Part shown: positions 2,209-62,587 of the stretch, in pieces
How positions within the stretch are numbered: the first letter of the stretch is position 1
Layout: every line of letters starts with the position of its first letter
NCBI GenBank assembly: GCA_016207275.1
Contig: JACQPY010000018.1
Span: forward strand, 23,960 to 87,959
Length of the DNA: 64,000 nucleotides
Direction of reading: 5' to 3'
DNA from: Candidatus Kerfeldbacteria bacterium
Lineage (GTDB): Bacteria; Patescibacteriota; Patescibacteriia; SBBC01
Notes under the pieces: model-generated
The model's database searches: none
What the model was told of the DNA's origin: nothing
What the model saw: only the letters and a program-made list of their open reading frames with translations
Position numbers and translations under genes: made by a program

Positions 2209-2222
<14 letters not shown>
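1818..2222 (-). CDS. Hypothetical protein (DUF3052-like)
   Basis: 134 aa starting MPRANVAGYSKKKLADKLGL. I recall a resemblance to DUF3052 small proteins but cannot confirm it. Confidence 0.4.
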
Positions 2223-5772
<3,550 letters not shown>

Positions 5773-5829: not shown

Positions 5830-5946
5830 CCTTCCCTTGTCAATCACCTTCCCTTGTCCCCTCCTGACTTCAGGAGGGGCACGCTTTATCGAACCCCCTC
5901 TTCAATTGAGGAGGGGTGTCCCGAGCACCCCCGACTCGATCGGGGG
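5830..5946. repeat. Family-1 palindromic repeat cluster R2 between the ileS start and the DUF559 gene's 3' end
   Basis: Contains a direct repeat cttcccttgt x2 and three hairpins: cccctcctg-actt-caggagggg, cccctc-ttcaattgag-gagggg and cccccga-ctcga-tcggggg. Confidence 0.65.
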
Positions 5947-6313
5947 CGAGGGACGAGGAGGTGATGAACTCCCGCAGCCGTTCCAACGTACCGTCAAGGT
6001 TATGGAGCACGTCATCGTTCGTGAACCTGACAACTCGAAAAAACATCGATTGTAACCACGCTGTTCGTCTGCGATCGTAGGCTTGCTGGTGTACGGCCCC
6101 GTGGGAATCACCATCAACTTCGACTACCAACCGAAGTTCACGACAATAAAAATCGGCAATGTAGTTGCCAATGCTGTGCTGGCGACGAAATTTCAACCCC
6201 ATAAACTGCTTCGTCTTCAAAGCATTCCACAAAACGACTTCTGCTTTGGAGCTATCCCGCCGAAGCGACCGACGCCGGTCAACGTATTTTGTCAGATTGT
6301 AAATTCGTGGCAT
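5870..6313 (-). CDS. DUF559 endonuclease-domain protein (Vsr-like fold); its C-terminal tail is encoded by the R2 repeat
   Basis: LWNALKTKQFMGLKFRRQHSIGNYIADFYCRELRLVVEVDGDSH is typical of DUF559. The last ~30 codons overlap the hairpin repeats. Confidence 0.75.
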   Translation of the reverse strand: MPRIYNLTKYVDRRRSLRRDSSKAEVVLWNALKTKQFMGLKFRRQHSIGNYIADFYCRELRLVVEVDGDSHGAVHQQAYDRRRTAWLQSMFFRVVRFTNDDVLHNLDGTLERLREFITSSSLAPDRVGGARDTPPQLKRGFDKACPS

Positions 6314-8236: not shown

Positions 8237-8312
8237 GGATGACCCCGCACCTCTTCCGCTGACGGACATATCAGTCAGGAAAACAACGGATTTGGGGAAA
8301 AGGTGCGGGGTC
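8237..8312. repeat. Family-2 palindromic element overlapping the argS stop codon
   Basis: cgggatGACCCCGCACC-[~50 nt]-GGTGCGGGGTCAcatc has 11-bp inverted arms. The argS TGA is the revcomp of the tca inside the right arm. Confidence 0.6.
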
Positions 8313-12028: not shown

Positions 12029-12109
12029 GCCTTGACATTCATCTGCTACTCGTCCACACTACCCCTCGCTCGGCCTTCCCCCGCTCTGACCACTTGGTGG
12101 TCGGAGCGG

Positions 12110-12523
12110 GGGGATGCTCAAATGTTGATGCAACCTTGACAAGCTACCATTGCACGGCGTAGCGCCGGAACCTACGTAAAAATTCCGGAAATGATAAGTG
12201 CCAAGACACTGATCAGCAAGCTAAAGACGCTGAAGGATAACTTCTCCGTCCCACAGTTTGCCCCGTCGTTCGCCTAACCCCGAATTAATTCGGGGCCGAA
12301 CGGCCATCCGTCTGGCCGATGCCGATAAGCCAGAGCCGGGTGTAATATCTTTCGGCTGGCCAACATTGTGCTCCACGATGTTGGTAAGAACTCGGAGCTA
12401 GTGACGTCGGCGTCTGGTCTGCCTCTAAGCAGGCGTCACGAACAACCCTGAGGTGGACGAACCGTGTGGACTGTGGTAGAGTGTTGGTTGCAGACGCGGG
12501 CGCACGACCCGCCATCTCCACCA
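12110..12523 (+). ncRNA. ssrA: Candidate tmRNA (ssrA), about 414 nt
   Basis: - It lies immediately downstream of smpB.
- The 5' GGGGATG pairs with the 3' CATCTCC, including a G3:U70 wobble, followed by ACCA.
- A T-arm-like GCGGG-cgcacga-CCCGC abuts the 3' acceptor strand.
- A helix-2-like pairing forms between TGCAACC (~12130) and GGTTGCA (~12487).
- An internal frame ends ...PQFAPSFA-TAA (12275-12277), followed by a perfect hairpin ccccgaattaattcgggg. Confidence 0.7.
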
Positions 12524-12699: not shown

Positions 12700-12981
12700 A
12701 TGCACTACGTCTACCTTCTTGAAGATCAAGTTGATCGCGGCTGGTACATCGGTTACTCAACCAAGCCGGTCCCGCGACTTGATCAACACCGCTCCGGTCT
12801 TGTATATTCAACACGATTGAAGCAGGCGCTGCGCATCATCTACGTCGAGGGTTACCTCAACAAATTCGATGCCCTCGGCCGGGAACGTTTTCTCAAGAGT
12901 GGAGCTGGCCGACGATTCCTTAGAAAGCAACTTAAACACCACCTGGAAGACCAAAACAAAACACCGCTAACTTACCCCTAA
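12700..12981 (+). CDS. GIY-YIG nuclease family small protein
   Basis: 93 aa. MHYVYLLEDQVDRGWYIGYSTKPVPRLDQHRSG is the GIY-YIG signature. Confidence 0.7.
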   Translation: MHYVYLLEDQVDRGWYIGYSTKPVPRLDQHRSGLVYSTRLKQALRIIYVEGYLNKFDALGRERFLKSGAGRRFLRKQLKHHLEDQNKTPLTYP

Positions 12982-13862: not shown

Positions 13863-14210
13863 ATGCGCGTCAAACGCGGCATCATCCACAAAAAACACGT
13901 CAAGAACATCCTCAAACATGCTAAAGGCTACCGTTGGCGTCGAAAAACTTCGGTTAAGCTCGCGAAGGTCGCGGTCACCCACGCCGGCTGGAACGCCTAC
14001 AAACACCGCCGAACCAAAAAGCGCGATTTCCGGCGGCTCTGGCAGATCCGGATCAACGCCGGCGCGCGACAGAATGGCATTACCTACTCTCGGCTAATAC
14101 CGTTGCTCAAAGCCAAGAAGATCGAGCTCAACCGAAAGGTTTTAGCCGAACTGGCGGCCAAACACCCTCAGGTCTTTGCCGAGGTCGTCAAGGTCGCGCA
14201 GGCAAAGTGA
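13863..14210 (+). CDS. rplT: 50S ribosomal protein L20
   Basis: MRVKRGIIHKKHVKNILKHAKGYRWRRK...RKVLAELAAKHPQVF matches L20. Confidence 0.95.
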   Translation: MRVKRGIIHKKHVKNILKHAKGYRWRRKTSVKLAKVAVTHAGWNAYKHRRTKKRDFRRLWQIRINAGARQNGITYSRLIPLLKAKKIELNRKVLAELAAKHPQVFAEVVKVAQAK

Positions 14211-14214
14211 AGCT

Positions 14215-14320
14215 CCACGGCCTCACGGCCGTGGTTTCTCTCGATCCGTGGTTCCGTGGAGCGGAACCCCGCACCGTCCCGACCGCACAAGCGCGTCGGG
14301 ACTGGTGCGTGGGTAAAACA
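14215..14320. repeat. Family-2 element copy A (with a conserved upstream hairpin block) between the convergent rplT and PRTase genes
   Basis: ccacggcc..ggccgtgg and ggttccg-tggag-cggaacc are followed by AACCCCGCACC-gtcccgac...gtcgggac-TGGTGCGTGGGTAA. This is near-identical in layout to copy C at 25521-25608. Confidence 0.6.
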
Positions 14321-15596: not shown

Positions 15597-15680
15597 ACTT
15601 CATCGGTACCATAGCGGTCAACCCTCGACAAGCCCAGCCATGTTTGCTAAAATCGTCCTGCTCAAGAACGTGCGCGGAGC

Positions 15681-15702
15681 GGACCGTTAGTGTAGTGGTT
15701 AA
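15681..15702 (+). other. Displaced 5' fragment of a tRNA-Asp-like gene (acceptor strand plus D-arm)
   Basis: GGACCGT-TA-GTGT-AGTGGTTAA parallels the start of the intact tRNA-Asp but stops at a family-2 element. The matching 3' half is at ~15917-15958. Confidence 0.45.
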
Positions 15703-15742
15703 CCCCGCACCAATTCTCGCTTCGCTCGAATGGTACGGGGCA
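15703..15742. repeat. Family-2 element (CCCCGCACC-aattctcgcttcgctcgaa-TGGTACGGGG)
   Basis: Inverted arms enclose a TTCG-containing core. The same subfamily is found at cobA (56188-56236) and prfB (44119-44165). Confidence 0.6.
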
Positions 15743-15772
15743 AGCACGCCTCCCTTGCAAAGCGCCCAGAGC

Positions 15773-15847
15773 GGACCCATAGTGTAGCCCGGTTAACACG
15801 TCTCCCTGTCACGGAGAAGATCAGGGGTTCAAATCCCCTTGGGTCCG
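15773..15847 (+). tRNA. tRNA-Asp (GTC)
   Basis: Cloverleaf: acceptor GGACCCA/TGGGTCC, U8A9, D-stem GTGT/ACAC, anticodon stem TCTCC/GGAGA with loop CTGTCAC, variable AGATC, T-arm AGGGG-TTCAAAT-CCCCT, discriminator G. Confidence 0.8.
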
Positions 15848-15869
15848 CTCTGAGCGCAGCCTCCCTGCC

Positions 15870-15919
15870 TGCCCCGCACTTGTGACCCTGAGCCAGTCGA
15901 AGGGGAACATAGTGCGGGG
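15870..15919. repeat. Family-2 element with a nested gaccc-hairpin core
   Basis: CCCCGCACT-tgtgaccctgagccagtcgaaggggaacat-AGTGCGGGG. The inner part matches the family-3 H2 motif. Confidence 0.55.
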
Positions 15920-15958
15920 TCACGGAGGAGATCACGGGTTCGACTCCCGTACGGTCCG
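15917..15958 (+). other. tRNA-Asp-like 3' half (anticodon loop 3' side, variable loop, T-arm, acceptor 3' strand)
   Basis: TCAC-GGAGG-AGATC-ACGGG-TTCGACT-CCCGT-ACGGTCC-G. Its acceptor strand complements GGACCGT at 15681-15687. Confidence 0.45.
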
Positions 15959-16022
15959 CTCCGCGCATGCGTCTCCCTGCTGCGCCCCGTCTACGCAAAC
16001 GTAGTGAGCGTTGTACGGGGCC

Positions 16023-16062
16023 TGCCCCGCACTTGACTCGAAGAGGCATAGTGCGGGGTCAC
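16023..16062. repeat. Family-2 element (short-core variant)
   Basis: CCCCGCACT-tgactcgaagaggcat-AGTGCGGGG followed by tcacggag. Confidence 0.5.
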
Positions 16063-16326
16063 GGAGCCCAGTACCACGTAGGGTGCTGGGCAAGAAGACC
16101 TGTCCCGTAAATGAGCGAAGCGAATTATACGGGATCAGGGGTTTCCCGCCACAATAATTTCAAAATTCTAAGGAAGGCGGGATCCCCGCCTGCCGAAGTC
16201 TCGCACGGCGGGCAGGCCGCCGAACTTGTCCCGTCGAATAACGGGATGGCGGGACAAATCCGGTCGGATCCGCCAAGAAAACTTAGTATCGAGCAATCCG
16301 ACAACACCGACGGTTGAATAAAGTTT

Positions 16327-21721: not shown

Positions 21722-22062
21722 TGGCGCACGCGTACCGCCAGGTCATCATCAGTGCGACGAGCAAGAAGGAAGCTGAATCGCTATCGGCGTTGTTGCTGAA
21801 AAAACGACTCATCGCTGGATCACTCATCATTCACGGACCATCACAGTATTGGTGGCAGCGGAAAATAGTTAAGAAAACTTACTACAATATCCAAGCGTTC
21901 ACTGTCTCCTCAAAGAAAAAGACGATTATCGCACAAGTCAAGCGCTACCACTCCGACAGGGCACCAATCATCGCGTTTGTTCAAATCGACGGAAATACGG
22001 AATTCAAGAAATGGATCGACGAATCCGTGCATAGTCAAACGTCAAATGTCATCCTTCGATAA
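21721..22062 (+). CDS. cutA: CutA1 divalent-cation tolerance protein
   Basis: MAHAYRQVIISATSKKEAESLSALLLKKRLIAGSL...YWWQRKI. The ATG overlaps the DHS stop (ATGA). The longer ORF-track start is rejected. Confidence 0.7.
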   Translation: MAHAYRQVIISATSKKEAESLSALLLKKRLIAGSLIIHGPSQYWWQRKIVKKTYYNIQAFTVSSKKKTIIAQVKRYHSDRAPIIAFVQIDGNTEFKKWIDESVHSQTSNVILR

Positions 22063-22150
22063 TACTCAGGATGACTCCGTACTTCACAGGGAAACAAGAA
22101 ATATGTCCATCAGACAGCGTCTCGGGATGACCCTGAGCGAAGTCGAAGGG
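22028..22150. repeat. Family-3 composite element (GTCAAACGTCAAATGTCA + catcc-hairpin + gaccc-hairpin) spanning the cutA 3' end and the agmatinase 5' end
   Basis: catccttcgataatactcaggatg and cgggATGACCCTGAGCGAAGTCGAAGGGTCAaaagttaaacg. A second copy is at 55375-55600. Confidence 0.55.
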
Positions 22151-23071
22151 TCAAAAGTTAAACGTAGTATTCTCCACGACACCGGCTCCCGCGGCTTCCT
22201 CAACCTGCCTAACCACCGCGACTTCAAGCGCTCGAAAGTCGTAGTCGTGCCGTTCGGTTTGGAAAAATCCGTCACCTTCGGCCATGGAACCTCAAAAGGT
22301 CCGGCCGCCATCATTGCGGCCAGTCACGAAGTCGAACTCTACGACGAACAGTTCAAAAACGAACCGTACAAACGTTACGGCATTGCCACCCTTAAACCAT
22401 TCCCCATACCCCACTCCCATCGTCGTGCACTAGAACTTCTCACCGATCTAACAGCCCGGTTGCTTCGACGTAAAAAATTCCCCATCATCCTCGGCGGCGA
22501 ACACTCGCTGACTGGCGGTTCAGTCGCTGGTATGGCCAAGGTTTTTGGCCGACGCGGTTTTAATATTCTCCACTTTGACGCACACACTGACCTACGACCG
22601 TCGTTTCAAGGCAACAAGCTAAGCCACGCCTCAGCCCTGCACCTGGCTATCCCCTACTTCCACCGTTTGGTTCAAATCGGCATCCGCAATACCTCCACCG
22701 AGGAACAGCCGATCATTCGCCGCTTGACCAAAGCCCGCCGTTTACAAATTTTCACCGCTGAGGACATTCTGCGTGCTAACAACACCGCCTACTTAACCAA
22801 AGCTATGGACTTTCTGCGAGACCGGCCAGTCTGGTTAACCTTTGACGTTGATGTCTTTGATCCGGCCATCATCGGTTCGAGCACTGGCACGCCCGAACCC
22901 GGCGGTTTATGGTGGTACGGCGTGCTTGACGCCCTCCAGGCAGCCACCAAACAACTCGACATTATCGGCGCCGAATTCGTCGAACTTTTGCCAAAACCGG
23001 GCCAGCAAGCGCCGGATTTTATCGTGGCCAAGCTCATCTACCAATTCCTGAATTTCAGGTTCGCGGCTTGA
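22103..23071 (+). CDS. speB: Agmatinase / arginase-family ureohydrolase (start uncertain: 22046, 22103 or 22127)
   Basis: GGEHSLT, HFDAHTDL and DVDVFDPA..TGTPEPGG are the Mn-binding motifs. The N-terminal ~15 codons are encoded by the family-3 repeat. Confidence 0.8.
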   Translation: MSIRQRLGMTLSEVEGSKVKRSILHDTGSRGFLNLPNHRDFKRSKVVVVPFGLEKSVTFGHGTSKGPAAIIAASHEVELYDEQFKNEPYKRYGIATLKPFPIPHSHRRALELLTDLTARLLRRKKFPIILGGEHSLTGGSVAGMAKVFGRRGFNILHFDAHTDLRPSFQGNKLSHASALHLAIPYFHRLVQIGIRNTSTEEQPIIRRLTKARRLQIFTAEDILRANNTAYLTKAMDFLRDRPVWLTFDVDVFDPAIIGSSTGTPEPGGLWWYGVLDALQAATKQLDIIGAEFVELLPKPGQQAPDFIVAKLIYQFLNFRFAA

Positions 23072-23664
23072 TGCGGAAACCGGTTGACGATTTACGAAAG
23101 GACATCGTTTTCTCCGCGCACTTACGCCAACACGAATTCGCGTTCCATTCGACCTGGGGACTCTTCAGTCCGGAGGCGATTGATCCAGGATCTAAACTCC
23201 TGATTGATCACCTCGATGTGCGCCCCAACGATACCGCAATTGATCTCGGATGCGGATACGGGGCAATCGGCATCGCCGTGGCGCGTGAAGCGTCGGCGGG
23301 ATACGTTCACCTTGTTGATAAAGACTTCATCGCGGTTGAATACGCCAAAAAGAACATTGCCGTAAACGGCATCGCCAACGCCACCGCCTACCTAAGCAAT
23401 GGATTCAACGCCATTCCCAAGGATCAGCGGTTCGATCTCATTCTTTCAAATCTTCCAGCCAAGGTCGGTCGAGAACTCTACGATATATTCTTCCTTGATG
23501 CCAAAAACTTCCTCAAACCTGGCGGCCGGATCTACGTCGTCACCATTGCCGGCCTCAAGGAATTCATCAAGAAAAACTTCCACGAAATATTCGGGAATTA
23601 CGACAAAGTAAAACAAAATGGCACGCACGTCGTCGCCCGAGCAGTGAAGCGCTCCCCGAGCTGA
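23068..23664 (+). CDS. Class I SAM-dependent methyltransferase (RsmC/RlmG-like small MTase domain)
   Basis: DLGCGYGAIG is SAM motif I, and NLPAKVG is an NPP-like motif. Confidence 0.65.
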   Translation: MMRKPVDDLRKDIVFSAHLRQHEFAFHSTWGLFSPEAIDPGSKLLIDHLDVRPNDTAIDLGCGYGAIGIAVAREASAGYVHLVDKDFIAVEYAKKNIAVNGIANATAYLSNGFNAIPKDQRFDLILSNLPAKVGRELYDIFFLDAKNFLKPGGRIYVVTIAGLKEFIKKNFHEIFGNYDKVKQNGTHVVARAVKRSPS

Positions 23665-23696
23665 CGCTCGGGGTATCAGTCCTTTCGGGCTTTCGG

Positions 23697-23750
23697 AGCG
23701 CGGAACCCCGCACCCGTCCCGCCAGCGGGCGGGACTGGTGCGTGGGTCAA
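23697..23750. repeat. Family-2 element copy B
   Basis: AACCCCGCACC-cgtcccgcc-agcg-ggcgggac-TGGTGCGTGGGTCA. It marks the left edge of an AT-rich islet. Confidence 0.6.
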
Positions 23751-24263
23751 ACGATCATAATCAGCGTTTGGCCTGTCTCGTCAGGAAACGCAGCTGGCGG
23801 GCCAAGTTCATCTATAAGTTTTTTTGAATTTTTGATTCGGTCGCTGACAGAAATATGTTATTCGCACGGACGGGCTGACCTCCAGTTTTCAGTCATAAAA
23901 TTCCTTAAAATATCAAACTCGCTGCAGGTGAGTCCGGCGTCCTTCCCCCAACCTACTCTGCTACCACCTCCGCCCTCTCCATCAACCACGCCAAAGTCAT
24001 AATTTTTGAGCAATCACCTAAATGTAGCTCTACTTACTAAGTCGAATATTTCTGCATTGTTTCTAAAGGCCTCTAGCAGTTTAAGGTTGATTGTCCCTTC
24101 GGGATAATTAGTTTTTTCTTGAATCATTATCAGCTCAACCGTGGCCATAAGAAAGTCGCTGGAATATTCTCCATATTTATTCAAGTCTTCATACTCTTTT
24201 AGGTTGACTTTGGTGAAGAACTGGAATTCAGGCGGATATTTTTTCGAGGGTTGAATTTTCTGG

Positions 24264-25435: not shown

Positions 25436-25520
25436 TTTGCGCTTGTATGACTCCCTGTTGATATCTTACCCGAAGAAAAACCGAATGTCAATTTATGCGA
25501 AATTGTGAAGCTCCATGTCC

Positions 25521-25608
25521 CCACGGCCGTGGTTTCTCTCGATACGTGGTTCCGTGGAGCGAAACCCCGCATCCGCCCCGAGCAATGTCGAGGGGCTGGT
25601 GCGTGGGT
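25521..25608. repeat. Family-2 element copy C (with the conserved upstream hairpin block)
   Basis: ccacggccgtgg...ggttccgtggagcgaaACCCCGCATC-cgccccgag..tcgaggggc-TGGTGCGTGGGTAA. It marks the right edge of the AT-rich islet. Confidence 0.6.
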
Positions 25609-25684
25609 AAGGATTTACTACTCTATGGTACGAGTTTTCCACACCAAAATCAAGAAAAAATCGCGGAAAGCTACAGACTAGCCA

Positions 25685-38259: not shown

Positions 38260-38643
38260 CTATTCCAGCAGTCTTTTCCTAAATGCTGATAATTGATTTC
38301 CAAGTTCTGCCGCGCTCGACAGTACTTCATCGCGTTCTTGGTGGGTGAGGCAGCCACAATCAACAGCCACATCACAACAGGCAACAACTTCATTCAAAGA
38401 GGCTAGTGCATAATTAAGAAAGAGCGCAAAATCCTTGTCCGAACTTCGATTCGATCCTTCGGCAATGTTGAGGACGATTGAGTTTGCTGCCCGCAGCAAC
38501 TGCGCCGTAAGAATGTATCTCTCACCATCCGGAAATGATCGCGCGTAACGACGAACGTGACTGACAAATTGTCGTGCTAACTGGTAGACGGTGAATTTTC
38601 TAAATCGAAACTTTCTATCGATATCAAATACCATTCTGGTCAA
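38260..38643 (-). CDS. Four-helix-bundle protein (23S rRNA intervening-sequence protein family)
   Basis: YILTAQLLRAANSIVLNIAEG ... LASLNEV is diagnostic for this family. Confidence 0.75.
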   Translation of the reverse strand: MTRMVFDIDRKFRFRKFTVYQLARQFVSHVRRYARSFPDGERYILTAQLLRAANSIVLNIAEGSNRSSDKDFALFLNYALASLNEVVACCDVAVDCGCLTHQERDEVLSSAAELGNQLSAFRKRLLE

Positions 38644-38665
38644 ATGTCAATTGTCAAATGTTATT
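38636..38665. repeat. TTGAC x3 array (right flank of the four-helix-bundle gene)
   Basis: ggtcaaatgtcaattgtcaaatg reads as TTGACAATTGACATTTGACC on the gene strand, directly upstream of the ATG. Confidence 0.5.
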
Positions 38666-39498
38666 TTTTGCCCGTCACTCGTCATCACCACGTCGCCGTC
38701 TTCATCCGTCCGTAACATTTTCGCCCCGCGCTTGTTGTACCGCCGCAGCACTACCGGGTGCGGATGGCCGTAGCGATTGTCCTGGCCCACGGAAATGACT
38801 GCCGCGGCAGGCTTGAGCGCATCTAAAAACTCCTCGCTCGACGACGAAATACTCCCGTGGTGCGGAACTTTCAAAACTTCGACGTCGGGCAACGTGCCGG
38901 TCAGCACCAGCCGCTGCTCAACGTCGGCACTGATGTCGCCGGTCAACAGCACGTCAGTCTCGCCGTACTGGACGTGCAGAACGACCGACGTGTCGTTGCG
39001 CAGTTTGGCATCGGCCGCGACCGCTGTTGGCGGCCACAGCACCTTCAGTGCAACCCCACCGACATCGAGCCGATAATTACCGATTGCTTCCAGGCGTTGC
39101 GCGCGCTGAGCGTCAATGGCGGCTTCCCAGGATCGATCGGCCAAGCTGTCGCTGCGGACCGCCGTTTCCAGAACGCGTTCGATCTTAAAGTGTTCAGCGA
39201 CGGCTGGTAAGCCACCGACGTGGTCTGCGTCAGGGTGGGTCAGGACCACGAGCTCCAGCGTCCGATCAGACGGCGGCAGGTACTCCGACAGTCGCTCAAC
39301 TACGCGTCCATCAGGACCACCATCAACCAGCACATCGCTGCCATCCGGTGTTTGCAGCAAAATGGCATCGCCCTGCCCAACGTCCAGCACCACCATTCGA
39401 AAAGCCGGGTCGGATCGCGGCCCGACCCACAGCGCCAGGGCCAGGGCGCAGGCCACCATCAGGAATGCTACCCGAATGACCAGGTTACGTTGCGACAT
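38647..39498 (-). CDS. comEC: ComEC/Rec2 C-terminal metallo-beta-lactamase domain
   Basis: VLDVGQGDAILL ... LTHPDADHVGG ... PHHGS. It forms a separate ORF with a 14-nt overlap on the upstream ORF. Confidence 0.75.
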   Translation of the reverse strand: MSQRNLVIRVAFLMVACALALALWVGPRSDPAFRMVVLDVGQGDAILLQTPDGSDVLVDGGPDGRVVERLSEYLPPSDRTLELVVLTHPDADHVGGLPAVAEHFKIERVLETAVRSDSLADRSWEAAIDAQRAQRLEAIGNYRLDVGGVALKVLWPPTAVAADAKLRNDTSVVLHVQYGETDVLLTGDISADVEQRLVLTGTLPDVEVLKVPHHGSISSSSEEFLDALKPAAAVISVGQDNRYGHPHPVVLRRYNKRGAKMLRTDEDGDVVMTSDGQKITFDN

Positions 39499-40654
39499 GC
39501 CGCTTCCTCGTTATCGTGACGTACCAACCAATGGCCAGGGCATTGACGGATGCGGCCGCGGCGCTGGCCTGCCAACCGAGCTGAACCGCCGCGATCGGCA
39601 GTGCGGCGCCAAACGTCACCACCCAGACCATCGCCCGCAGCGGTAACCACGCCAGCCAGCCGACCAACACTGCCAGCCACGGCGCCAGAGCGGTCAGCAC
39701 CGCCACCGCAAAGCCGGTCAGCATGGCCGGCGGGATCAAAGGCAGTACCACGACGTTGACTAGGGGTGCTACCAGCGACACCTGCCCGAAGTACAGTAAA
39801 ATCAACGGCTGCGTAAACATGATGGCCGCCAGCGTCGAGGCTAGTGAGCTCCGCAAGCCAAAGACGGTTGACACGAAGGTTAACCGCTGTTCCAACGGTT
39901 CGGCCAGCAGCACCAAAGCGGCAGTCGCCACGACGGACAGCTGAAAGCTCAAGCTCGTGATGATGACTGGCTGGATCACAACCATGCTGGCCGCGCTCAG
40001 GACCAGCAGATGCCAACCGTCAGCCAGCCGACCACTGTACCGCGCCAGCACCACCAGCGATCCCATAATCCCAGCCCGGACAACCGAGGGCGACGCACCG
40101 GTGAGAATGACGAAGGCGGCCACGGCCAGAATCGTGACCAACAACTGCATGGCGCGACCCAACGGCATCGATCTGATGATGGCGGCCACCGCACTGACCA
40201 CGATGGTGACGTTGAAGCCTGAAACTGCCACGATGTGGCTGGTGCCCGTAGTCCGAAAGGCTTGGAGTAAGTTGCGCGGTAGGTCTTCGCGTCCGCCGAG
40301 CAGCAAGCCAGTCAGCAAGGCCGCCTCAGTCGGCGGCAGCGCCTGGTTAATCCCGTGTTCTAACCACGCACGGGTTGCGGTCAGGGCAGCGATAATTGGC
40401 TGCTCATCACTGACTCCCGCTGGCGCACCCAGCAGCCACCCCCGGAGCAATCCGAGACCAAACAGCAACGGCACAAACCACCAGCGCCACCGTGCGGCGA
40501 TGGCCGTGAGTGTTGCTCCGAACACCATCCCCATCGTCGGAACAACAAAACCACCGACCGCTGCGCCAGCGGCCAGCGCCATTGCTCCGACTTGAATCCG
40601 CGTTTTCCGTGGTAACAAAATTGGTGACCAGCGGCCACCGTTTGTCTGGATCAA
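39485..40654 (-). CDS. comEC: ComEC/Rec2 N-terminal competence (TM) domain
   Basis: Multi-TM protein with FRTTGTSHIVAVSGFNVTIV, the competence-domain signature. Confidence 0.75.
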   Translation of the reverse strand: MIQTNGGRWSPILLPRKTRIQVGAMALAAGAAVGGFVVPTMGMVFGATLTAIAARWRWWFVPLLFGLGLLRGWLLGAPAGVSDEQPIIAALTATRAWLEHGINQALPPTEAALLTGLLLGGREDLPRNLLQAFRTTGTSHIVAVSGFNVTIVVSAVAAIIRSMPLGRAMQLLVTILAVAAFVILTGASPSVVRAGIMGSLVVLARYSGRLADGWHLLVLSAASMVVIQPVIITSLSFQLSVVATAALVLLAEPLEQRLTFVSTVFGLRSSLASTLAAIMFTQPLILLYFGQVSLVAPLVNVVVLPLIPPAMLTGFAVAVLTALAPWLAVLVGWLAWLPLRAMVWVVTFGAALPIAAVQLGWQASAAAASVNALAIGWYVTITRKRHVAT

Positions 40655-42834: not shown

Positions 42835-43981
42835 CTATACCCCATCCTTCCCACTCCCACGTTTCGCCTGCCCCGAGCTCTTTCGGCGGGGCCTGCCTTC
42901 ACGTTTCCAACGTAGGAACGCTTCCATAAATGACTGGAGTTCTCCATTCAACACCGCGTCCACATCGCTTGTTTCGAACTTTGTCCGATGATCCTTGACC
43001 ATCCGGTACGGCTGCAGCACGTACGAGCGAATCTGGTTGCCCCAGGCCGCTTCGGCGTACTCGCCGCGTAGCTGCTGCTTTTCTTGATGGATTTTTTCTT
43101 CTTCCAGCATCTGCAGCTTCGACTGCAGAATCTTCATCGCGGTTTCGCGATTCTGCTGCTGCGAGCGCTCGTTCTGCACAGACACCATGATTTTCGTCGG
43201 CCGGTGCACCACCCGCACGGCCGAGTACGTCGTCTGCACGCCTTGTCCGCCGTGACCGCCGGACAAAAATGTGTCAACGCGAATATCTTTCGGATCAATT
43301 TTGACTACTTCCAACTCTTCGAACTCGGGAATGACCTCGACCAGGGCGAACGACGTGTGCCGCATCTTTTCCGCGTCAAACGGCGAAATCCGGACCAGCC
43401 GGTGCACGCCGGCCTCACTCTTAAGGTAGCCGAAGGCAAACCGACCTTTGACTTCAAGCAGCACGCTCTTGATGCCGGCTTCTTGCCCCCGCGACTCGTC
43501 AATCACCCGCGTCTGCCACCCTTGCTGTTCAGCAAACCGCAGCAGCATCCGCAGCAACATCAGCGCCCAGTCTTGGGCGTCCGTGCCGCCGGTACCGGCG
43601 TGCACGGCGACAATTGCATTTTTATCGTCGTGCTTTCCCGACAGCAATATTCTAAATTCCAAATTCCGCATTCCCCCTTCCAATTCTCCCAACTGATGTT
43701 CAATGTCTTTTCGCAGTGATTCTGCCTCCGGCTCCTCCAGTACATGCGCTAAATCGGCGGCTTGCTGATTCAACCGATCCCAGATCACGATATCTTCTTT
43801 AAGCTCGCTTAGATGCCTGCTCTGCCGTTCGGCCTGCTCACGATCATCCCAAAACCCCGGCTGGCCCATCCGCTCTTCAATTTCGAGAATGGCCTGCCGT
43901 TTCTGATCCAGGTCAAAGCAAGCCGCGGGCAGAAACTATTTTCTGCCGTAGGCTGTCCAATCTTCGCGCTAAATCATTCAT
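42835..43981 (-). CDS. prfB: Peptide chain release factor 2 with a programmed +1 frameshift
   Basis: SPF and GGQ motifs are present in ORF 42835..43869. Upstream, ATG (43981) - MNDLARRLDSLRQKIVSARGLL runs into the canonical CTT TGA C shift site (~43913-43918). The +1 frame then continues DLDQKRQAILEIEERMGQPGFW. Confidence 0.85.
43913..43918 (-). promoter_or_regulatory. RF2 autoregulatory +1 frameshift site CUU UGA C
   Basis: The minus-strand sequence is ggcttgCTTTGACctgg. Confidence 0.8.
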
Positions 43982-43999
43982 ACAATTACGAAACGGCGC

Positions 44000-44045
44000 A
44001 GTCCCGCAACGTAACGAGCGGCCGCGAGTTACTGGTGCGGGGAAA
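44000..44045. repeat. Family-2 element between prfB and its first 5'-end duplicate
   Basis: GTCCCGCAAC-gtaacgagcggccgcgagttac-TGGTGCGGGGAAA. Confidence 0.55.
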
Positions 44046-44105
44046 CCCCCGTGCTTCGGAAACTTTCTTCTCAAGAATTGTCAGTCGGTCTTTTAAATCT
44101 TTCAT
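44046..44105 (-). other. Duplicate of the prfB 5' end (decoy start 2)
   Basis: Minus strand reads ATGAAAGATTTAAAAGACCGACTGACAATTCTTGAGAAGAAAGTTTCCGAAGCACGGGGG, translating MKDLKDRLTILEKKVSEARGF. This is RF2-N-terminus-like and runs into the element. Confidence 0.55.
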
Positions 44106-44118
44106 GGTACTAGCAATG

Positions 44119-44165
44119 TAACCCCGCACCGGAACGAACGCAAGTGAGTGACTGGTGCGCGGGCA
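44119..44165. repeat. Family-2 element between prfB duplicates 2 and 3
   Basis: AACCCCGCACC-ggaacgaacgcaagtgagtgac-TGGTGCGCGGG. Confidence 0.55.
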
Positions 44166-44279
44166 GCCTTCGCGACGTGTTGATTTTGTCGCGAAGGTGT
44201 TCCAAGCGCTTTACCAAATCGTGCATCATAAAAATGTTTAGGCTGTCCCGAGCGAGCGAAGCGAGTCGAGGGATAACCT

Positions 44280-44336
44280 CCGTGAACTTGTAACTTTACT
44301 TTGGAGAACTGACAGACGATCCTTTAAGTCTTTCAT
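44280..44336 (-). other. Duplicate of the prfB 5' end (decoy start 3)
   Basis: Minus strand reads ATGAAAGACTTAAAGGATCGTCTGTCAGTTCTCCAAAGTAAAGTTACA, translating MKDLKDRLSVLQSKVT. Confidence 0.5.
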
Positions 44337-48574: not shown

Positions 48575-48629
48575 TGTTGTTTTCCTACCGATTAAAATAC
48601 CACGTCAGCGTTGCTAAAAGCAACTATCA

Positions 48630-48720
48630 CCTCCTGTCCTCCTCTTATATCAAGAGGAGGGACTTGCTAAAGGCCTGTTCGCGAGTCCTCCCTCTTCCCT
48701 GAAGAGGGAGACGGAGGGTG
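48630..48720. repeat. Family-1 composite repeat R5 upstream of DUF559 gene 2
   Basis: tcctcctctt-atatc-aagaggagga, then GACTTGCTAAAGGCC, then tcctccctcttc..gaagagggagacggagggtg. It is a direct copy of R6. Confidence 0.65.
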
Positions 48721-48781
48721 ATACACTTGACACTGCATTAAATGTCTTCTACGCTGTAGTCCGGTGGCATAACCATACAAC

Positions 48782-49192
48782 ATGCCGCCACATTTTTTAT
48801 ACAACAACCCGTCGTTTAAGCGACGACGGCAAAAGCTGCGAAACAAGTCAACACCGGCTGAACGAAAACTTTGGGGACATCTTCGAAAAAGTCAGTTGTT
48901 GGGCTTAAAGTTCCAACGGCAGTATGGGATCGGCCCGTACGTGCTTGATTTCTTTTGTCCGGAATTACGACTGGCAATTGAAGTTGACGGCGACTCACAT
49001 TTCACGCCCGACGCCCGCGCCTACGATCAGCAACGTCAACAATTCATCGAGAACGAGGATATCGCCGTGGTCAGGTTTCTCAATACCGACATTCACGAGA
49101 ATATGGATGGCGTGCTAACAAAGCTAGGCGAGGTAGTGATGTCTCTTACCACCCCTTGTTCCCCTCCTACGCTAGGAGGGGAGACTTGCTAA
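48782..49192 (+). CDS. DUF559 endonuclease-domain protein (copy 2); its C-terminal tail is encoded by repeat R6
   Basis: LWGHLRKSQLLGLKFQRQYGIGPYVLDFFCPELRLAIEVDGDSH matches DUF559. The tail ..TTPCSPPTLGGETC lies in the hairpin. Confidence 0.75.
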   Translation: MPPHFLYNNPSFKRRRQKLRNKSTPAERKLWGHLRKSQLLGLKFQRQYGIGPYVLDFFCPELRLAIEVDGDSHFTPDARAYDQQRQQFIENEDIAVVRFLNTDIHENMDGVLTKLGEVVMSLTTPCSPPTLGGETC

Positions 49193-49250
49193 AAGCCGTT
49201 AGCATATCCTCCCTCCTAGGGTAGGAGGGAGACAGAGGGTGGTACCAAAA
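49160..49250. repeat. Family-1 composite repeat R6 at the 3' end of DUF559 gene 2
   Basis: tcccctccta-cgc-taggagggga, then GACTTGCTAAAAGCC, then tcctccctcctagggtaggagggagacagagggtgg. Confidence 0.65.
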
Positions 49251-55165: not shown

Positions 55166-55374
55166 GGGGTCGCACCGGATTGCCTACATTCGTATTTTCA
55201 ATGTGTGGTTGACGACGAACTAACTACTGATCCCTAACCCCCAAACCCTATCTTGTCACCCAGTACATGAAGGAAAAGACGAACACCGCCGCGGCCATGA
55301 AGAAAATCAACCACAAAAACTGCAGGAGTGTCGACTTTTTTTCGAGTGGATTATGAAACATTGTTTTTGGTTAA

Positions 55375-55600
55375 ACGTTACGAGTCAAATGTTCACTTCG
55401 ATCCTTCGACTTTGCTCATCCTTCGACAATGCTCAGGATGAGTCCCGCCGAATGGGCGACCTTTATGCACGTATCCACAGGATAGCACATCGAATGACTT
55501 GTGACTAGCGACCCGTCACATGTCATCCCTCGACGCTGCTCGGGATGACCCCGAGCGTAGTCGAAGGGTCACAGATCAAATGTCACATGTTCTCAATAAT
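55375..55600. repeat. Family-3 composite element (two catcc-hairpins, one gaccc-hairpin, flanking GTCAAATGT motifs)
   Basis: catccttcgacaatgctcaggatg, catccctcgacgctgctcgggatg and gaccccgagcgtagtcgaagggtc, followed by cacagatcaaatgtcacatg. Confidence 0.55.
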
Positions 55601-56168
55601 CAATCCCCTTGCTGGCAATAATCCCTTGGTAGTATGGATGCTTAACCATCTTCATTTCGGTCACCAAGTCACAACGCTTTAATACAGCTGGGTAGGCGCT
55701 GTGGCCGGTCATGGCCACGTGGACCAGTTTTGCTTTCGGATGCTTAGCTCGTTCGTTGAGCAACTTCGCAATCGCCGACACGGGAAAGAGTTTCTGCTCC
55801 GAGCAAGCAATGATCTCATCGAGTATCACGAGCTTGTACTTTCCTGAAAACAGCAATTGCTTTGCTTCGGCCAACGCGCTGGCTGCAGCTTGCCGGTGCT
55901 GCCGGCGAGATTTTCGGTCGCCTAAAATGCCCACAAACCCTTTGCCGCGGACGCGCACATCAACCCCTAACTTCTTCAACGTCACCCGCTCGCCTGACGG
56001 CCATTGCGCTGACTTGTAAAACTGAAAAAACAGCACGGGCCAGCCGTAGCCCGCAGCTCGCGTGGCCAAACCGACAGCCGCCGTGGTTTTTCCTTTACCA
56101 TCGCCGACGTAGGCAATGGTTAGACCGCGATCAATGGCGCGAAATTGCTTTACGGCTGATCTCTTCAT
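55593..56168 (-). CDS. Cob(I)yrinic acid a,c-diamide / cob(I)alamin adenosyltransferase (BtuR/CobA/CobO family)
   Basis: IAYVGDGKGKTTAAVGLATRAAGYGW is the P-loop region. The start is taken at MKRSAVKQF. The longer ORF-track N-terminus is rejected. Confidence 0.75.
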   Translation of the reverse strand: MKRSAVKQFRAIDRGLTIAYVGDGKGKTTAAVGLATRAAGYGWPVLFFQFYKSAQWPSGERVTLKKLGVDVRVRGKGFVGILGDRKSRRQHRQAAASALAEAKQLLFSGKYKLVILDEIIACSEQKLFPVSAIAKLLNERAKHPKAKLVHVAMTGHSAYPAVLKRCDLVTEMKMVKHPYYQGIIASKGIDY

Positions 56169-56187
56169 AGAGTACTGCGCCGACGCA

Positions 56188-56236
56188 TGCCCCGTACCGG
56201 ACTCCGAGCGAAGTCGAGGAGGACTGGTGCGGGGTA
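56188..56236. repeat. Family-2 element immediately upstream of the adenosyltransferase gene
   Basis: CCCCGTACC-ggactccgagcgaagtcgaggaggac-TGGTGCGGGGTAGG, with a TTCG core like the tRNA-Asp and prfB copies. Confidence 0.55.
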
Positions 56237-56239
56237 GGC

Positions 56240-56293
56240 AATGATCAGGCCGCGATCGATCGCCCGAAATTTTTTTGGAGCAGATTTTTTCAT
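56240..56293 (-). other. Diverged duplicate of the adenosyltransferase 5' end
   Basis: Minus strand reads ATGAAAAAATCTGCTCCAAAAAAATTTCGGGCGATCGATCGCGGCCTGATCATTGCCTAC. The real start is ATGAAGAGATCAGCCGTAAAGCAATTTCGCGCCATTGATCGCGGTCTAACCATTGCCTAC. Confidence 0.55.
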
Positions 56294-56368
56294 GATTCAC
56301 GTAATCAGCGCGGCATTCGCCGCGCTCATTAGTTTACCGTACTACCAGTCAATCAACAATCGCCACCG

Positions 56369-59627: not shown

Positions 59628-61904
59628 TCAGCCGCACTTCGAAAATCCGCAATTGTGGCACTTCATGCAGCCTTCGGCGATTTCCAGCATCGTGCCGCAG
59701 TCCGGGCAAGCCGGAGCATAGCCGGCGTTAGCCAAAGACTCTTTTTTCGTCCCATTAGTCACGATCGTCGGAGTCGAATTTCCGTTCAGTCCGAGTTCAA
59801 GCTTTTGCTGATTGCGGTTAACGTGCTTTTCAATCACCTTGCCGATGGCGTCTGGGAGCGACAGAATCTGTCCGCCGTCGTGCCAGGACACGTCCGGCCC
59901 GCGGATCCCTTTGATCTGGTCAACGATTTCTTTCGGCGAAATGCCGGAGCGGAGAGACAGTGAAATCAAACGGCAGATCGATTCAGACTGGGCCGCAAAG
60001 AACCCGCCGTTTTTGCCGATGGTGGCGAAGACCTCAAACGGCCGACCCTGTTCGTCGTCATTGACAGTGATGTAGAGTGAGCCATATGGCGTGTTCACTT
60101 TGTAGGTGGTGCCCTTCAAGTGCTCAGGCCGCTCTCGTGGACCGAAACCATTGGCGGTCTCAACTACTGGCGTCGGTTTAACCTGTCCATTGAGCACCGT
60201 TTTGCCAGTAGTCAGCACTTGTTCGTCCCGGGAGCCGTCGCGGAAGATGGTTACGCCCTTGCAGCCAAGGTCGTAGGCCAGGTCGTACACTTTCCGGACG
60301 TCTTCCTCAGTTGCTTCGTGCGGGAAGTTGACGGTCTTGGAAATCGAGTTGTCGACGTGTTCCTGGAAGGCGGCTTGCATCCGGACGTGGTCTGCCGGCG
60401 TACAGTCAGCCGCGGTCACGAACACCTTCTTCCATTTGTCCGGTACTTCGTCGAACTTCTGGATTGAGCCTTCATAGGCAATTCGTTCCATCAGCTCGGC
60501 CGAGTACCAGCCTTCGCGCTTGGCGATCTCTTCGAATTTAGGGTGGACGTAGACGAGCGCCGTGCCGTCCATGACCGTTTTGGTGAAGACCACGGCGAAC
60601 AACGGCTCGAGCCCTGAGCTGCAGTCAGCAATCATCGAGATCGTGCCGGTCGGCGCGACCGTCGTCCGAGCGACGTTGCGCATCGGCAGACCCTGCTTCT
60701 CAAACTCAGAACCGACGTAGTTCGGGAAATTGCCGCGCGTCTTCGCCAGTTCGGCTGACGCCCGAGTGGCCTCATCATTGATGAACTTCATCACCTTGCC
60801 GGCCATGTCTAAACCGGCCTTCGAATTGTACGGAATCTCCAGCTCGATCAGCACGTCGGCAAAACCCATCACGCCTAAGCCGATGCGACGGTTAGTCAAC
60901 GTCTTTTCGGCAATCTGGGCGACCGGGAAACGATTCATGTCGATCACGTTGTCCAGAAAGTGAACCGTTTCCACTGTCACCTTCTTCAGCCGGGGCCAAT
61001 CAACGCTGGCCTTGCCGGTCTTGGTCCGCTTGACGAAGTGGCCGAGGTTGATTGAACCCAAGTTGCAGGAATCGTAGCCGGCCAGCCACTGCTCGCCGCA
61101 GGGGTTGGTGGCTTCGAGCGTTTCCACATGTCGGGCCGGGTTGGTGGCGTTCGCCCGGTCGATGAACAGGACACCGGGATCGCCGGTCAGCCAAGCGTGG
61201 TGGACAAGTAAGTTCCAGACTTTACGGGGATCGAGCTGACCGGTGACCTGGCCATTGTGCGGCGCCACCAAATCGTACTGCTTCCCGGCCTGGAGGGCGT
61301 CCATGAATTTTTCGGTCACCGCCACCGAGATGTTGAAGTTCCGCATTTCGTTCAGATCTTCCTTGATCTTGATAAACTCAAGGATGTCGGGGTGGTCGAC
61401 CCGCAGCACGCCCATGTTGGCACCGCGTCGGGTGCCGCCCTGCTTGACGATGTCGGTGGCCGTATTGAAAATGCGCATGAACGAGACCGGTCCCGAAGCC
61501 ACGCCGTGCGTGGTCTTAACCAAGCTGCCCTTGGGGCGCAGGCGGGAAAAGGAAAAGCCAGTCCCGCCGCCGGACTGGTGGATGATCGCCTGGTGCTTGA
61601 GCGTTTCGAAAATGCCCTCGATCGAGTCCTCGACCGGCAAGACAAAGCAGGCCGAGAGCTGTTGGAAGTCGCGACCAGCGTTCATTAAGCAGGGCGAATT
61701 GGGTAAGAAATCGCGGCTGGCAATCAGCCGAAAGAACTGCTCCTCGAGCTTGACCACCTTGGTCGGCGTCGTTCCGTACGTGGCATCGGCCTGGGCGATG
61801 TTGTTGGCCACCCGCCGGAACATGTCGACTGGCCGCTCCGCTGGTTTGCCGTCTTTCTTCTTCAGATATCGCTTTTCCAGGACCGTAATGGCGTTGGCGC
61901 TCAT
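59628..61904 (-). CDS. nrdJ: Class II (adenosylcobalamin-dependent) ribonucleotide reductase NrdJ
   Basis: [12 protein letters not shown] active site and a C-terminal Zn-ribbon [13 protein letters not shown]. The likely start is [14 protein letters not shown] (ORF-track maximum 62120). The start is uncertain. Confidence 0.85.
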
Positions 61905-62059
61905 GTTGTCGAGGAGCGCGTCGTCGTCCTGACGCTTTCGTCCGTCAACCAGGGCGTCGGTAATAATCTCCTTAAGTTTTTGCTGGTCGATCGGCTGCTG
62001 CTGAACGAGCTTGCGTGGATGGACGGAACCGTTCATACGGGTGGTGATGCGAAATGTGG

Positions 62060-62587
62060 TTATGACTTTTTGAAACGCGACTTGTTCGATCGGCGCCGAC
62101 CGCGCTGGCCACCCCGCCACTGGCGGGGAGTCCCGCCGGGGGCGGGAAAGGACTTAAGTTCCTCCCAGAAACTCTCGGCGTCCGTGAAAGACCGGTAAAC
62201 GGAGGCGAAGCGAATGTAGGCCACGGGATCGGCCCGTTTCAACCGCTTCATGACGATTTCACCGATCTGCTCCGAGGTGATTTCGTTTCGGCCCCGCAAT
62301 TGGATGTCCCGCTCAACGATATTGACCAGGCGCTTGAAGCTGTCGTGGGTAATCGGCCGCTTTTCCAGCGCTTTCTTCAGGCCGGCTTCCAGCTTCTCGC
62401 GACTGTAGGGCTCTCGCCGGCCGTCGCGCTTAACGACGGTGAGGTTGAGAATTTCAACCTCTTCGTAGGTAGAAAAGCGGAAACCGCACTGCAGACACTC
62501 CCGGCGGCGGCGGACAGCCACCCCTTCGTTGACCAGGCGCGAATCGGTTACTTTGGTGTCAATGTTATGGCACGCGGGACAGCGCAT
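62060..62587 (-). CDS. nrdR: Transcriptional repressor NrdR
   Basis: MRCPACHNIDTKVTDSR...CLQCGFRFSTYE Zn-ribbon followed by an ATP-cone. The start is taken at the internal ATG (the ORF-track TTG extension is rejected). Confidence 0.85.
   Translation of the reverse strand: MRCPACHNIDTKVTDSRLVNEGVAVRRRRECLQCGFRFSTYEEVEILNLTVVKRDGRREPYSREKLEAGLKKALEKRPITHDSFKRLVNIVERDIQLRGRNEITSEQIGEIVMKRLKRADPVAYIRFASVYRSFTDAESFWEELKSFPAPGGTPRQWRGGQRGRRRSNKSRFKKS

Follow-up and report, generated by a model that had tools for sequence, protein, structure and literature searches.

A hairpin element and a second gene start in cobA of a Candidatus Kerfeldbacteria bacterium: a candidate insertion module of about 125 nt that carries a replacement gene end

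Anatomy of the doubled cobA start

Why does a cobalamin adenosyltransferase gene begin twice, with a hairpin between its two beginnings? The question is raised by cobA in a 64-kb stretch of DNA from a Candidatus Kerfeldbacteria bacterium (contig JACQPY010000018.1; the whole stretch is hereafter called the window), whose closest genomes belong to Candidatus Kerfeldbacteria and Ca. Microgenomatus, both in the candidate phyla radiation (CPR, or Patescibacteria). The answer that we favour, at a probability of roughly 60%, is a small, polar, hairpin-led insertion module that brings a replacement gene end with it, resembling target-restoring integrative elements except that it is non-coding and measures only ~125 nt. 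The same layout recurs at other essential genes in the window and in related uncultured bacteria, which points to a tiny mobile DNA, and cobA stays intact because the insert brings its own copy of the first 20 codons.

The functional gene (cobA/cobO/btuR, ATP:corrinoid adenosyltransferase; 191 aa plus stop; Pfam PF02572, E = 3e-50) occupies 55593..56168 on the minus strand, begins at 56168 (MKRSAVKQFRAIDRGLTIAYVGDGKGKTT...) and lies downstream of the class I ribonucleotide reductase (RNR) beta gene, which includes an ATP-cone, and the RNR alpha gene. Its protein is 100% identical to the cobA product annotated in a Kerfeldbacteria metagenome-assembled genome at NCBI (P0001); look-ups of the exact protein returned no record for either reading of cobA, 191 aa or 235 aa. 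The minus strand at 56293-56234 (ATGAAAAAATCTGCT...ATTGCCTAC) encodes MKKSAPKKFRAIDRGLIIAY, and at 56168-56109 (ATGAAGAGATCAGCC...ATTGCCTAC) it encodes MKRSAVKQFRAIDRGLTIAY. Both copies run from an ATG to ATTGCCTAC, their starts lie 125 nt apart, and they are identical at 46/60 positions without a gap, so the similarity of the upstream copy to the cobA 5' end holds in a pairwise alignment; a preliminary description of this DNA had put the figures at about 47 identities and about 130 nt. When the window was searched with a sliding dot-plot for direct repeats (offsets 30-900, at least 26/36 matches), comparable local repeats were found only at cobA, tRNA-Asp, prfB, families of hairpin repeats and genes for NHL-repeat proteins.

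As had been described, the upstream copy continues directly into a palindrome, CCCCGCACCAGTCCTCCTCGACTTCGCTCGGAGTCCGGTACGGGG (56234-56190), which is followed by CATG. Together they form a polar hairpin element at 56186..56234 (minus strand, from sequence and folding), namely a 45-nt imperfect palindrome CCCCGCACC...GGTACGGGG plus CATG. Folded as single-stranded DNA, its complementary strand is the more stable (-12.3 kcal/mol, against -7.6 for the coding strand), since the C.A mismatch of the coding strand is G.T there. With element and CATG removed, the alignment of the old and the new copy spans -59 to +8 around the insertion point, and the 8 nt that follow the element, CGTCGGCG (56178..56185, minus strand), therefore continue the old gene; the intact copy reads TAC|GTCGGCGATGG at this place. 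Owing to this continuation the element is a simple insertion without target duplication. It does lie between the copies, as first proposed, but inside the old one, whose 8-nt remnant follows CATG, and not at its edge. A 9-nt linker, CAGTACTCT (56169..56177, minus strand), reads from the remnant to the new ATG and does not resemble the native DNA that precedes the old cobA ATG. The putatively xenologous replacement patch (56109..56168, minus strand; 46/60 to the upstream copy) then supplies codons 1-20 of the functional gene and ends in ...ATTGCCTA. The extra non-coding DNA in cobA thus comprises element, remnant, linker and second codons 1-20, ~125 nt at the codon 20/21 boundary, and only ~65 nt, without coding capacity, lie between the two repeats. 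A 42-codon open reading frame (ORF; 56165..56293, minus strand) runs from the native ATG through the element to a TGA that overlaps the new ATG (ATGA). A promoter scan detected no sigma-70-like site near either cobA start.

The two closest cobA orthologues (86-87% aa identity; L202/L203 and L204) are uninterrupted, and in L204 the gene follows the RNR-alpha gene, as in the window. Comparison with such loci had been suggested at the outset, and it proved informative: the upstream fragment, and not the functional start, is colinear with the orthologous starts (L204, L202 and L002) and, in L204 and L002, with their context, including the RNR-alpha end and the hairpin upstream. The latter, a native G+C-rich hairpin at 56307..56326 between RNR-alpha and the old cobA start (a terminator-like match), lies outside the module and has a comparable counterpart upstream of cobA in L002. 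Identity to L202 is 82.5% for the upstream fragment, 83.1% for the rest of the gene and 78.9% for the functional start; the two window copies match each other at only 77% of positions. Since it is colinear with the orthologues and matches the rest of the gene in its identity to L202, the fragment at 56234..56293 (minus strand; MKKSAPKKFRAIDRGLIIAY) is, by this comparison, the native cobA start in its original context, recently displaced. For the functional start the best interpretation is a foreign (xenologous) patch, with weaker support here than at prfB and in a second cobA gene, described next.

In a distant cobA (66% aa identity; protein P0021, contigs L205/L206), an element occupies the same site (…GCGTA|CCCC…) and is followed by a new start, with a homologous 8-nt remnant, CATCGGCG. 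The gene caller had merged fragment, element and new start into a single protein of 222 aa. In L205 the G+C content at third codon positions (GC3) is 29% in the patch, against 74% for both the displaced fragment and the remainder of the gene. This composite is identical in two samples and assemblies (L205/L206). The window structure has an independent counterpart as well, since a Logan contig from SRR12113385 (L001), found through a look-up of RNR-alpha, is identical across the whole cobA structure.

Recurrence of the layout at prfB, tRNA-Asp and in other contigs

The preliminary description had presented cobA as an independent second locus with the order fragment, element, gene, on the opposite strand, and had assigned its element to the subfamily of the one upstream of tRNA-Asp. 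Both points hold: the cobA element and that at 15703-15740 have common arms and a common core, TCG(A)CTTCGCTCG. Our analysis adds a third locus, prfB, at least 12 CPR contigs, the native state of the fragment, the foreign patch and the specificity of orientation.

The gene prfB encodes release factor RF2 and contains the classical CTT TGA C +1 frameshift site. By sequence comparison, its start holds an array of three stacked units and a functional patch (43919..44336, minus strand), each unit consisting of a 21-codon RF2 start, a hairpin of the cobA-element family and a short linker. The first unit has its start at 44274-44336 and a degenerate element at 44245-44273, the second a start at 44164-44226 and an element at 44122-44163, and the third a start at 44043-44105 and an element at 44001-44042; the functional patch at 43919-43981 stands directly before the frameshift site CTTTGAC (43912-43918; all on the minus strand). 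The stacked fragments read MKDLKDRLSVLQSKVTSSRRL, MHDLVKRLEHLRDKINTSRRL and MKDLKDRLTILEKKVSEARGF, the functional start MNDLARRLDSLRQKIVSARGL, and all fragments end past codon 21, immediately before the frameshift site. Three close relatives (84-89% aa identity) lack the units, and their starts (MKDLKDRLQ...) resemble the farthest-upstream fragment of the array, which adjoins the upstream gene that these relatives also have; the newer units are those nearer the gene. The functional 63-nt start is 52-57% identical to the three relatives, which are 70-78% identical to one another. When the gene was divided into 63-nt bins, the first bin, the functional start, reached 54% against a baseline of 73%, and the later bins matched the relatives' own baseline (differences of -5 to +8 points). 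The foreign tract thus does not reach beyond the patch and stops where the element is inserted. Within the patch, the Shine-Dalgarno-like GGAGG/GGGGG that the relatives have three nt before CTT is replaced by GCGGC (native context GGAGGTTA CTTTGA, patch GCGGCTTG CTTTGA), a change that may reduce the efficiency of frameshifting. In the relatives, the ComEC competence gene adjoins prfB; in the window, two adjacent ORFs encode the ComEC competence domain and, separately, its metallo-beta-lactamase domain (38650-40654, minus strand).

The tRNA-Asp complex (15672..16090, plus strand) contains an intact gene, allele A (15773-15848), and the pieces of a second allele, B, all on the plus strand. The B 5' fragment (15672-15702) is followed by an element with CAAG (15703-15744) and a B tail (15745-15755); on the other side of the intact gene lie a further B tail (15860-15867), an inverted element (15868-15919), the B 3' fragment (15920-15966), two more inverted elements (15980-16020 and 16021-16058) and a shorter element-like hairpin (~16067-16090). 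At least four hairpin elements interrupt allele B, and each B fragment abuts the CCCC end of an element. Past the element and its conserved tetranucleotide CARG, the old gene goes on for 8-11 nt before the new copy begins with its own flanks. The elements on the 3' side are inverted, and the intact tRNA-Asp therefore again lies on their CARG side. In the acceptor stem, the B fragments have GGACCGT/ACGGTCC where allele A has GGACCCA/TGGGTCC, the B pair being mutually compensating, and in both alleles the stem is extended into the flanks by 9-11 bp (GCGCCCAGAGC/GCTCTGAGCGC), with compensatory differences between the alleles. Compensation between its 5' and 3' fragments, both in the acceptor stem and in the extension of that stem into the flanks, shows that B was formerly a whole, working gene. 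A group I intron in tRNA-Asp was considered, since a preprint describes one at site 35/36 in Patescibacteria, and was set aside: the elements here measure 34-52 nt and, in the displaced fragments, lie at 34/35 and in the D-loop.

The element family was scanned in metagenome contigs with the pattern CCCCGCACCAGT-N(10-36)-GGTRCGGGG, which matched at least 120 contigs, chiefly from groundwater and sediment; the window alone contains at least 12 copies. Counts of elements in this paragraph refer to the matches listed. The hairpin is followed by CARG (CAAG/CAGG/CATG/CGAG) in 41/86 elements, an A is bulged after CCCCGCACC in 23 elements vs 2, folding favours the bottom strand in 59/80, and the inner stems vary in sequence with their complementarity kept. 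Left flanks are diverse (TTAA, GTGA, CCTA, AGCT, TGGA, GATA and others), with a weak preference for A only. No target duplication was visible at resolvable junctions, which become exact once element and CARG are removed. Across 77 oriented, non-redundant elements with sufficient flank, we searched for a forward arrangement, in which the sequence abutting the left end of the element is repeated 0-85 nt to its right (score of at least 24), and for its mirror image; the former occurred 10 times and the latter once, in a case where both copies abut the element. The intact copy always lies on the CARG side of the element. At least 12 unrelated CPR contigs have the layout of fragment, element and gene. 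Among the genes affected are those for tRNA-Arg, -Val and -Thr, which are interrupted in the D-loop (TAGCT^CAG or ATGGA^TAGA); further targets include an rplP-like start (MLIPKKVKH), other protein starts, a gene 3' end (L161) and the N-terminal tail of gyrB, where element and 28-nt repeat together make an 81-nt in-frame insertion (L131, 11346-11454).

Rfam 15 recognised only tmRNA and tRNA-Asp above threshold in the window, and around cobA nothing below E = 0.69; viral contigs yielded 7 pattern matches only, with no indication of a phage vector; and full-text literature searches, including one with the element sequence itself, returned no description of such elements. A tblastn comparison of ORF starts with their own upstream DNA, meant to reveal further hidden duplications, gave only noise from spurious frames, and MAFFT alignment of whole cobA and prfB units was uninformative.

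The displaced ORF is coupled or fused to the new start in 8/9 protein-start cases. Its stop overlaps the new ATG as ATGA at cobA, L167, L110 and L195, precedes the new ATG by 4-11 nt in the three prfB units, and gives way to an in-frame fusion in L205. With null probabilities of 0.13-0.51 per case, the combined P is ~9e-4. Such coupled or fused ORFs fit termination-reinitiation from the old start. Translational bypassing or splicing was rejected as an account of the structure, since the second copy has its own ATG, where the upstream ORF (uORF) stops.

Origin of the replacing gene ends and competing explanations

Pooled over nine pairs of old and new copies, synonymous divergence (pS) is 0.74, near saturation, and non-synonymous divergence (pN) is 0.18, a ratio of 0.24. 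For the two cobA copies, 9/14 differences are synonymous (pN/pS 0.17); the L135 pair has 9 identical residues with 8 synonymous differences, and the L195 pair has seven synonymous and two non-synonymous differences over 12 residues. Because this divergence arose under coding constraint, the second copy is taken to be foreign and not of local make; decay of a local copy does not account for the repeat. Comparison with relatives and base composition indicate an origin of the replacing gene ends in distant lineages, clearly at prfB and L205 and less so at cobA. The right end of the patch coincides with the insertion site of the element. A relation to diversity-generating retroelements was discarded, as only 4/14 differences between the cobA copies fall on an A in one copy.

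The loci show a discrete, polar piece of hairpin-led DNA bearing a foreign gene end; site and remnant are fixed for each gene, no target sequence is duplicated, and units are stacked. In the insertion module that we favour, the hairpin would be a REP/IS200-like element that is recognised in single-stranded form and moved by a factor acting in trans. Element, remnant, linker and gene end would move together, the right flank reaching as far as the next target-site copy, and this unit would enter a new host as a discrete piece at the homologous conserved site. Selection would retain only insertions that restore the gene; since the unit restores the displaced gene end, insertion into essential genes would be tolerated. 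Repeated insertion into the current functional copy would stack the older starts upstream, and a restored protein gene would be expressed via termination-reinitiation from the displaced start.

A number of points weigh against this proposal. No gene for a transposase, an integrase or an HUH enzyme was found in the 64-kb window (Pfam, ~50 ORFs), and none was linked to the element. Neither a within-species empty site, an excision polymorphism or a circular junction nor a near-identical unit in two different hosts was seen; mobility is deduced from phylogenetic patchiness and foreign composition. At cobA the patch is barely further from the relatives than the native fragment (45/57 vs 47/57). The gene-end signature accompanies only ~13-20% of the family members among the matches listed, and the left flanks have no clear common target motif. 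One orphan is unaccounted for: in L098 (6930-6985) a tRNA 5' fragment, GCCGGTGTAGCTCAA, abuts a fully symmetric element, although the 7.4 kb contain no intact tRNA. As for the coupling, its statistic is modest and follows in part from genes that begin with ATGA, and the three prfB units in it are not independent. Furthermore, the sequences come from metagenome assemblies throughout (JGI, ENA and Logan data).

The explanation that competes best, although we consider it unlikely, is one-sided homologous or homology-facilitated illegitimate recombination after natural transformation, in which DNA from diverged relatives would join the resident gene through homology at one end and illegitimately, close to a hairpin, at the other, with the hairpin as a hot spot or a passenger and no part of a dedicated mobile unit. 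It agrees with the foreign patch and with the pairing of one seamless and one non-homologous junction, the junction types expected of homology-facilitated illegitimate recombination, and a ComEC competence gene is present in the window. Site and remnant, in contrast, are constant across events and genomes: the foreign tract ends at one site in three successive prfB events, with the baseline regained at once, and two distant cobA genes have the same site and the same 8-nt remnant. This constancy and the sharp boundary argue against plain recombination. In addition, the polarity of the element is strict, and donor and recipient differ by 25-45% in the sole shared arm, which would make a very poor RecA substrate.

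Homing by double-strand-break repair shares with recombination the conclusion that the patch is foreign, and differs from it in the driver. Here a site-specific or guide-directed nuclease would cut naive alleles, and the composite would be copied from a donor genome. Stacked units, conserved targets and the sharp boundary at the site would suit such a process. The window also encodes nuclease-like ORFs, namely a free-standing 93-aa GIY-YIG domain directly after tmRNA (12700-12978, plus strand) and two DUF559 proteins (5873-6313 and 48782-49189), and one might speculate that the remnant beside the hairpin acts as a guide. But one protein nuclease would be unable to recognise so many different sites, the remnant is merely 7-19 nt long, the functional copy retains an intact site, and no nuclease gene was linked to the element; homing in this form appears improbable to us.

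A local origin, with the gene start duplicated in tandem (for instance through replication slippage at the hairpin) and the redundant copy later decaying, would account for the near-tandem arrangement, in which the new copy starts 3-9 nt past the old one at three loci of the window, and for the 6-14 nt of upstream flank shared in the tRNA cases. A copy that decays neutrally for so long is expected to lose its reading frame and residues, whereas here synonymous sites are saturated and amino acids retained. Moreover, the functional prfB copy is far more diverged from the relatives than the displaced one, the cobA fragment resembles an orthologue from another genome more than it does the adjacent copy, the L205 patch departs from its gene in GC3, and the tRNA-Asp fragments co-vary. 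For these reasons in situ duplication with decay was rejected as very improbable.

We give just as little credence to a dedicated regulatory leader, in which the fragment would be a uORF or attenuator controlling cobA and the hairpin a regulatory structure. The overlap of the uORF stop with the gene start (ATGA) and the position of the hairpin between uORF start and gene would be as expected, but the architecture is also seen at tRNA genes and gene 3' ends and, in frame, in gyrB, the closest cobA orthologues lack it, and it matches no Rfam family. Finally, an assembly artefact that joined two strain alleles around a repeated hairpin is scarcely credible: although all data are short-read metagenome assemblies and the sole other contig with a prfB array, from Logan, breaks exactly at the array start, the cobA structure is identical in a second assembly, the L205/L206 composite is identical in two samples, and dozens of JGI, ENA and Logan cases agree in polarity and in the logic of their reading frames.

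Relation to known elements, possible consequences and further repeats

Integrative elements that supply a replacement gene end include islands at tRNA and tmRNA 3' ends, elements at the 5' end of dusA, and the non-autonomous, tandemly accreting derivatives of both, the cis-mobilizable elements (CIMEs). As in these, the displaced native end is left as a fragment, the functional end comes from the incoming DNA, and site and target genes are conserved; the three prfB units after codon 21 and the units 3' of tRNA-Asp also resemble the tandem accretion of CIMEs at one site. Unlike the tRNA and dusA islands, which span kilobases and encode an integrase, the unit here is non-coding and ~110-130 nt long, and no integrase was found on the element or in the window. 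Between the repeats stands a single imperfect hairpin, many different genes are hit by one hairpin family, and the two copies are 54-77% identical at cobA and prfB, in contrast to the near-identical att repeats of islands.

Among short palindromes, REP and REPIN sequences and palindrome-associated elements derived from IS200/IS605 are treated in part by Di Nocera et al. 2013 (PMC3733652), Nunvar et al. 2010 (PMC2817692) and Bertels & Rainey 2011 (PMC3116915). The elements studied here share with them a short, G+C-rich imperfect palindrome in many copies, one end marked by a conserved tetranucleotide (CARG), strands made unequal by a bulge and a mismatch, the absence of target duplication and polar insertion. 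They differ in that the tag is not GTAG or CGTC and in that the left flanks have no fixed target tetra- or pentanucleotide as for IS200/IS605; no RAYT or TnpA gene was found in the 64-kb window. We know of no REP- or IS200-type element that lies inside essential genes with a compensating copy of the gene end.

By analogy, the hairpins may also be compared to the attC sites of integrons, which are used as single-stranded DNA: both are imperfect hairpins with extrahelical bases, found in small promoter-less units that are serially inserted in arrays. Our elements lack the GTTRRRY core (their arms are CCCCGCACC/GGTRCGGGG), no intI gene is present in the window and there is no intI/attI platform; the arrays lie within various housekeeping genes, each "cassette" being a piece of the downstream gene. 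Mycobacterial interspersed repetitive units (MIRUs) likewise contain a short ORF that overlaps stop and start codons (ATGA type) and preserves downstream translation, but MIRUs lie between operon genes, are not led by a hairpin and have no gene-end copy. In the Allomyces atp6 hybrid gene, a foreign terminus sits beside the displaced native C-terminus and an endonuclease ORF. The fusion of a foreign terminus in frame to a resident gene, with the native terminus left nearby, is common to both; organelle insertions of this kind are single cases with a homing-endonuclease ORF, unlike the family of 125-nt non-coding units seen here.

More tentatively, and at odds that we would not call even, the units may belong to a class so far undescribed, that of non-autonomous, patch-carrying homing mini-elements of CPR bacteria. 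These units of 110-130 nt would move between distant genomes and insert at conserved sites in essential genes (RF2, tRNA, ribosomal protein, gyrase, cobA), the damage being neutralised by a foreign gene end with built-in translational coupling. If one hairpin family targets many different genes, the choice of site would have to be directed by nucleic acid, through the unit's own patch, its short remnant or both. A co-variation of left-flank motif and hairpin loop, as in guide-type pairing, was not seen by eye in 18 cases. If the favoured insertion module is correct, tiny non-coding DNA routinely enters essential, highly conserved genes of streamlined CPR genomes, where foreign first codons or tRNA halves take the place of the resident ones. 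This would amount to a cryptic route of horizontal transfer that makes core genes mosaic and biases phylogenies built from gene ends. Target-restoring integration, known from kilobase islands with integrases, would be reducible to ~125 nt, and stacked arrays would record successive invasions. Two questions would follow: how a non-coding unit finds its site across 25-45% divergence, and which enzyme handles a strand-asymmetric hairpin. For annotation, fused hairpin-derived peptides inflate predicted proteins, as in P0021 (222 aa), and both start codons and tRNAs may be misassigned.

Other repeats and unusual genes were noted in the window. A composite repeat at 14207-14319, 23646-23752 and 25505-25613 consists of a hairpin GTGAAGCTCCACGG...CCGTGGAGC followed by a hairpin CCCCGCACC...GGTGCGTGG; it starts within the TGA stop codon of rplT and likewise within that of a methyltransferase gene, and may be a 3'-end version of the gene-end phenomenon. 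An inverted-repeat element of 74 nt at 8240-8313 (TGACCCCGCACC...GGTGCGGGGTCA) provides the TGA stop of the arginyl-tRNA synthetase gene; at the nucleotide level no duplication was detected in its flanks. Just 3' of smpB, a perfect 33-nt palindrome, CCCCGCTCTGACCACTTGGTGGTCGGAGCGGGG (12079-12111), overlaps the first G's of tmRNA (12110-12523, plus strand) and may be a terminator or a further inserted element. The DUF559 ORFs, of the Vsr-like endonuclease fold, are bracketed by palindromic repeats (48625-49244 and 5858-6313), namely hairpins of the form CCCCTCC...GGAGGGG and a direct repeat of 51 nt (48625 and 49147), and look like small selfish cassettes. The isoleucyl-tRNA synthetase gene (1187 aa; 2212-5772, minus strand) has a histidine-phosphatase domain (PF00300) inserted at residues 515-678, and a second, TSCPD-containing ribonucleotide reductase is encoded at 59631-62120 (minus strand) in addition to the class I pair near cobA. 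Other short repeat families are intergenic (22020-22165, 55363-55583, 38632-38661 and 1787-1816; for example TCATCCTTCGACAATGCTCAGGATGA, GACCCTGAGCGAAGTCGAAGGGTC and GTCAAATGTCAAACGTCAAATGT), and such repeats also lie directly 3' of cobA.

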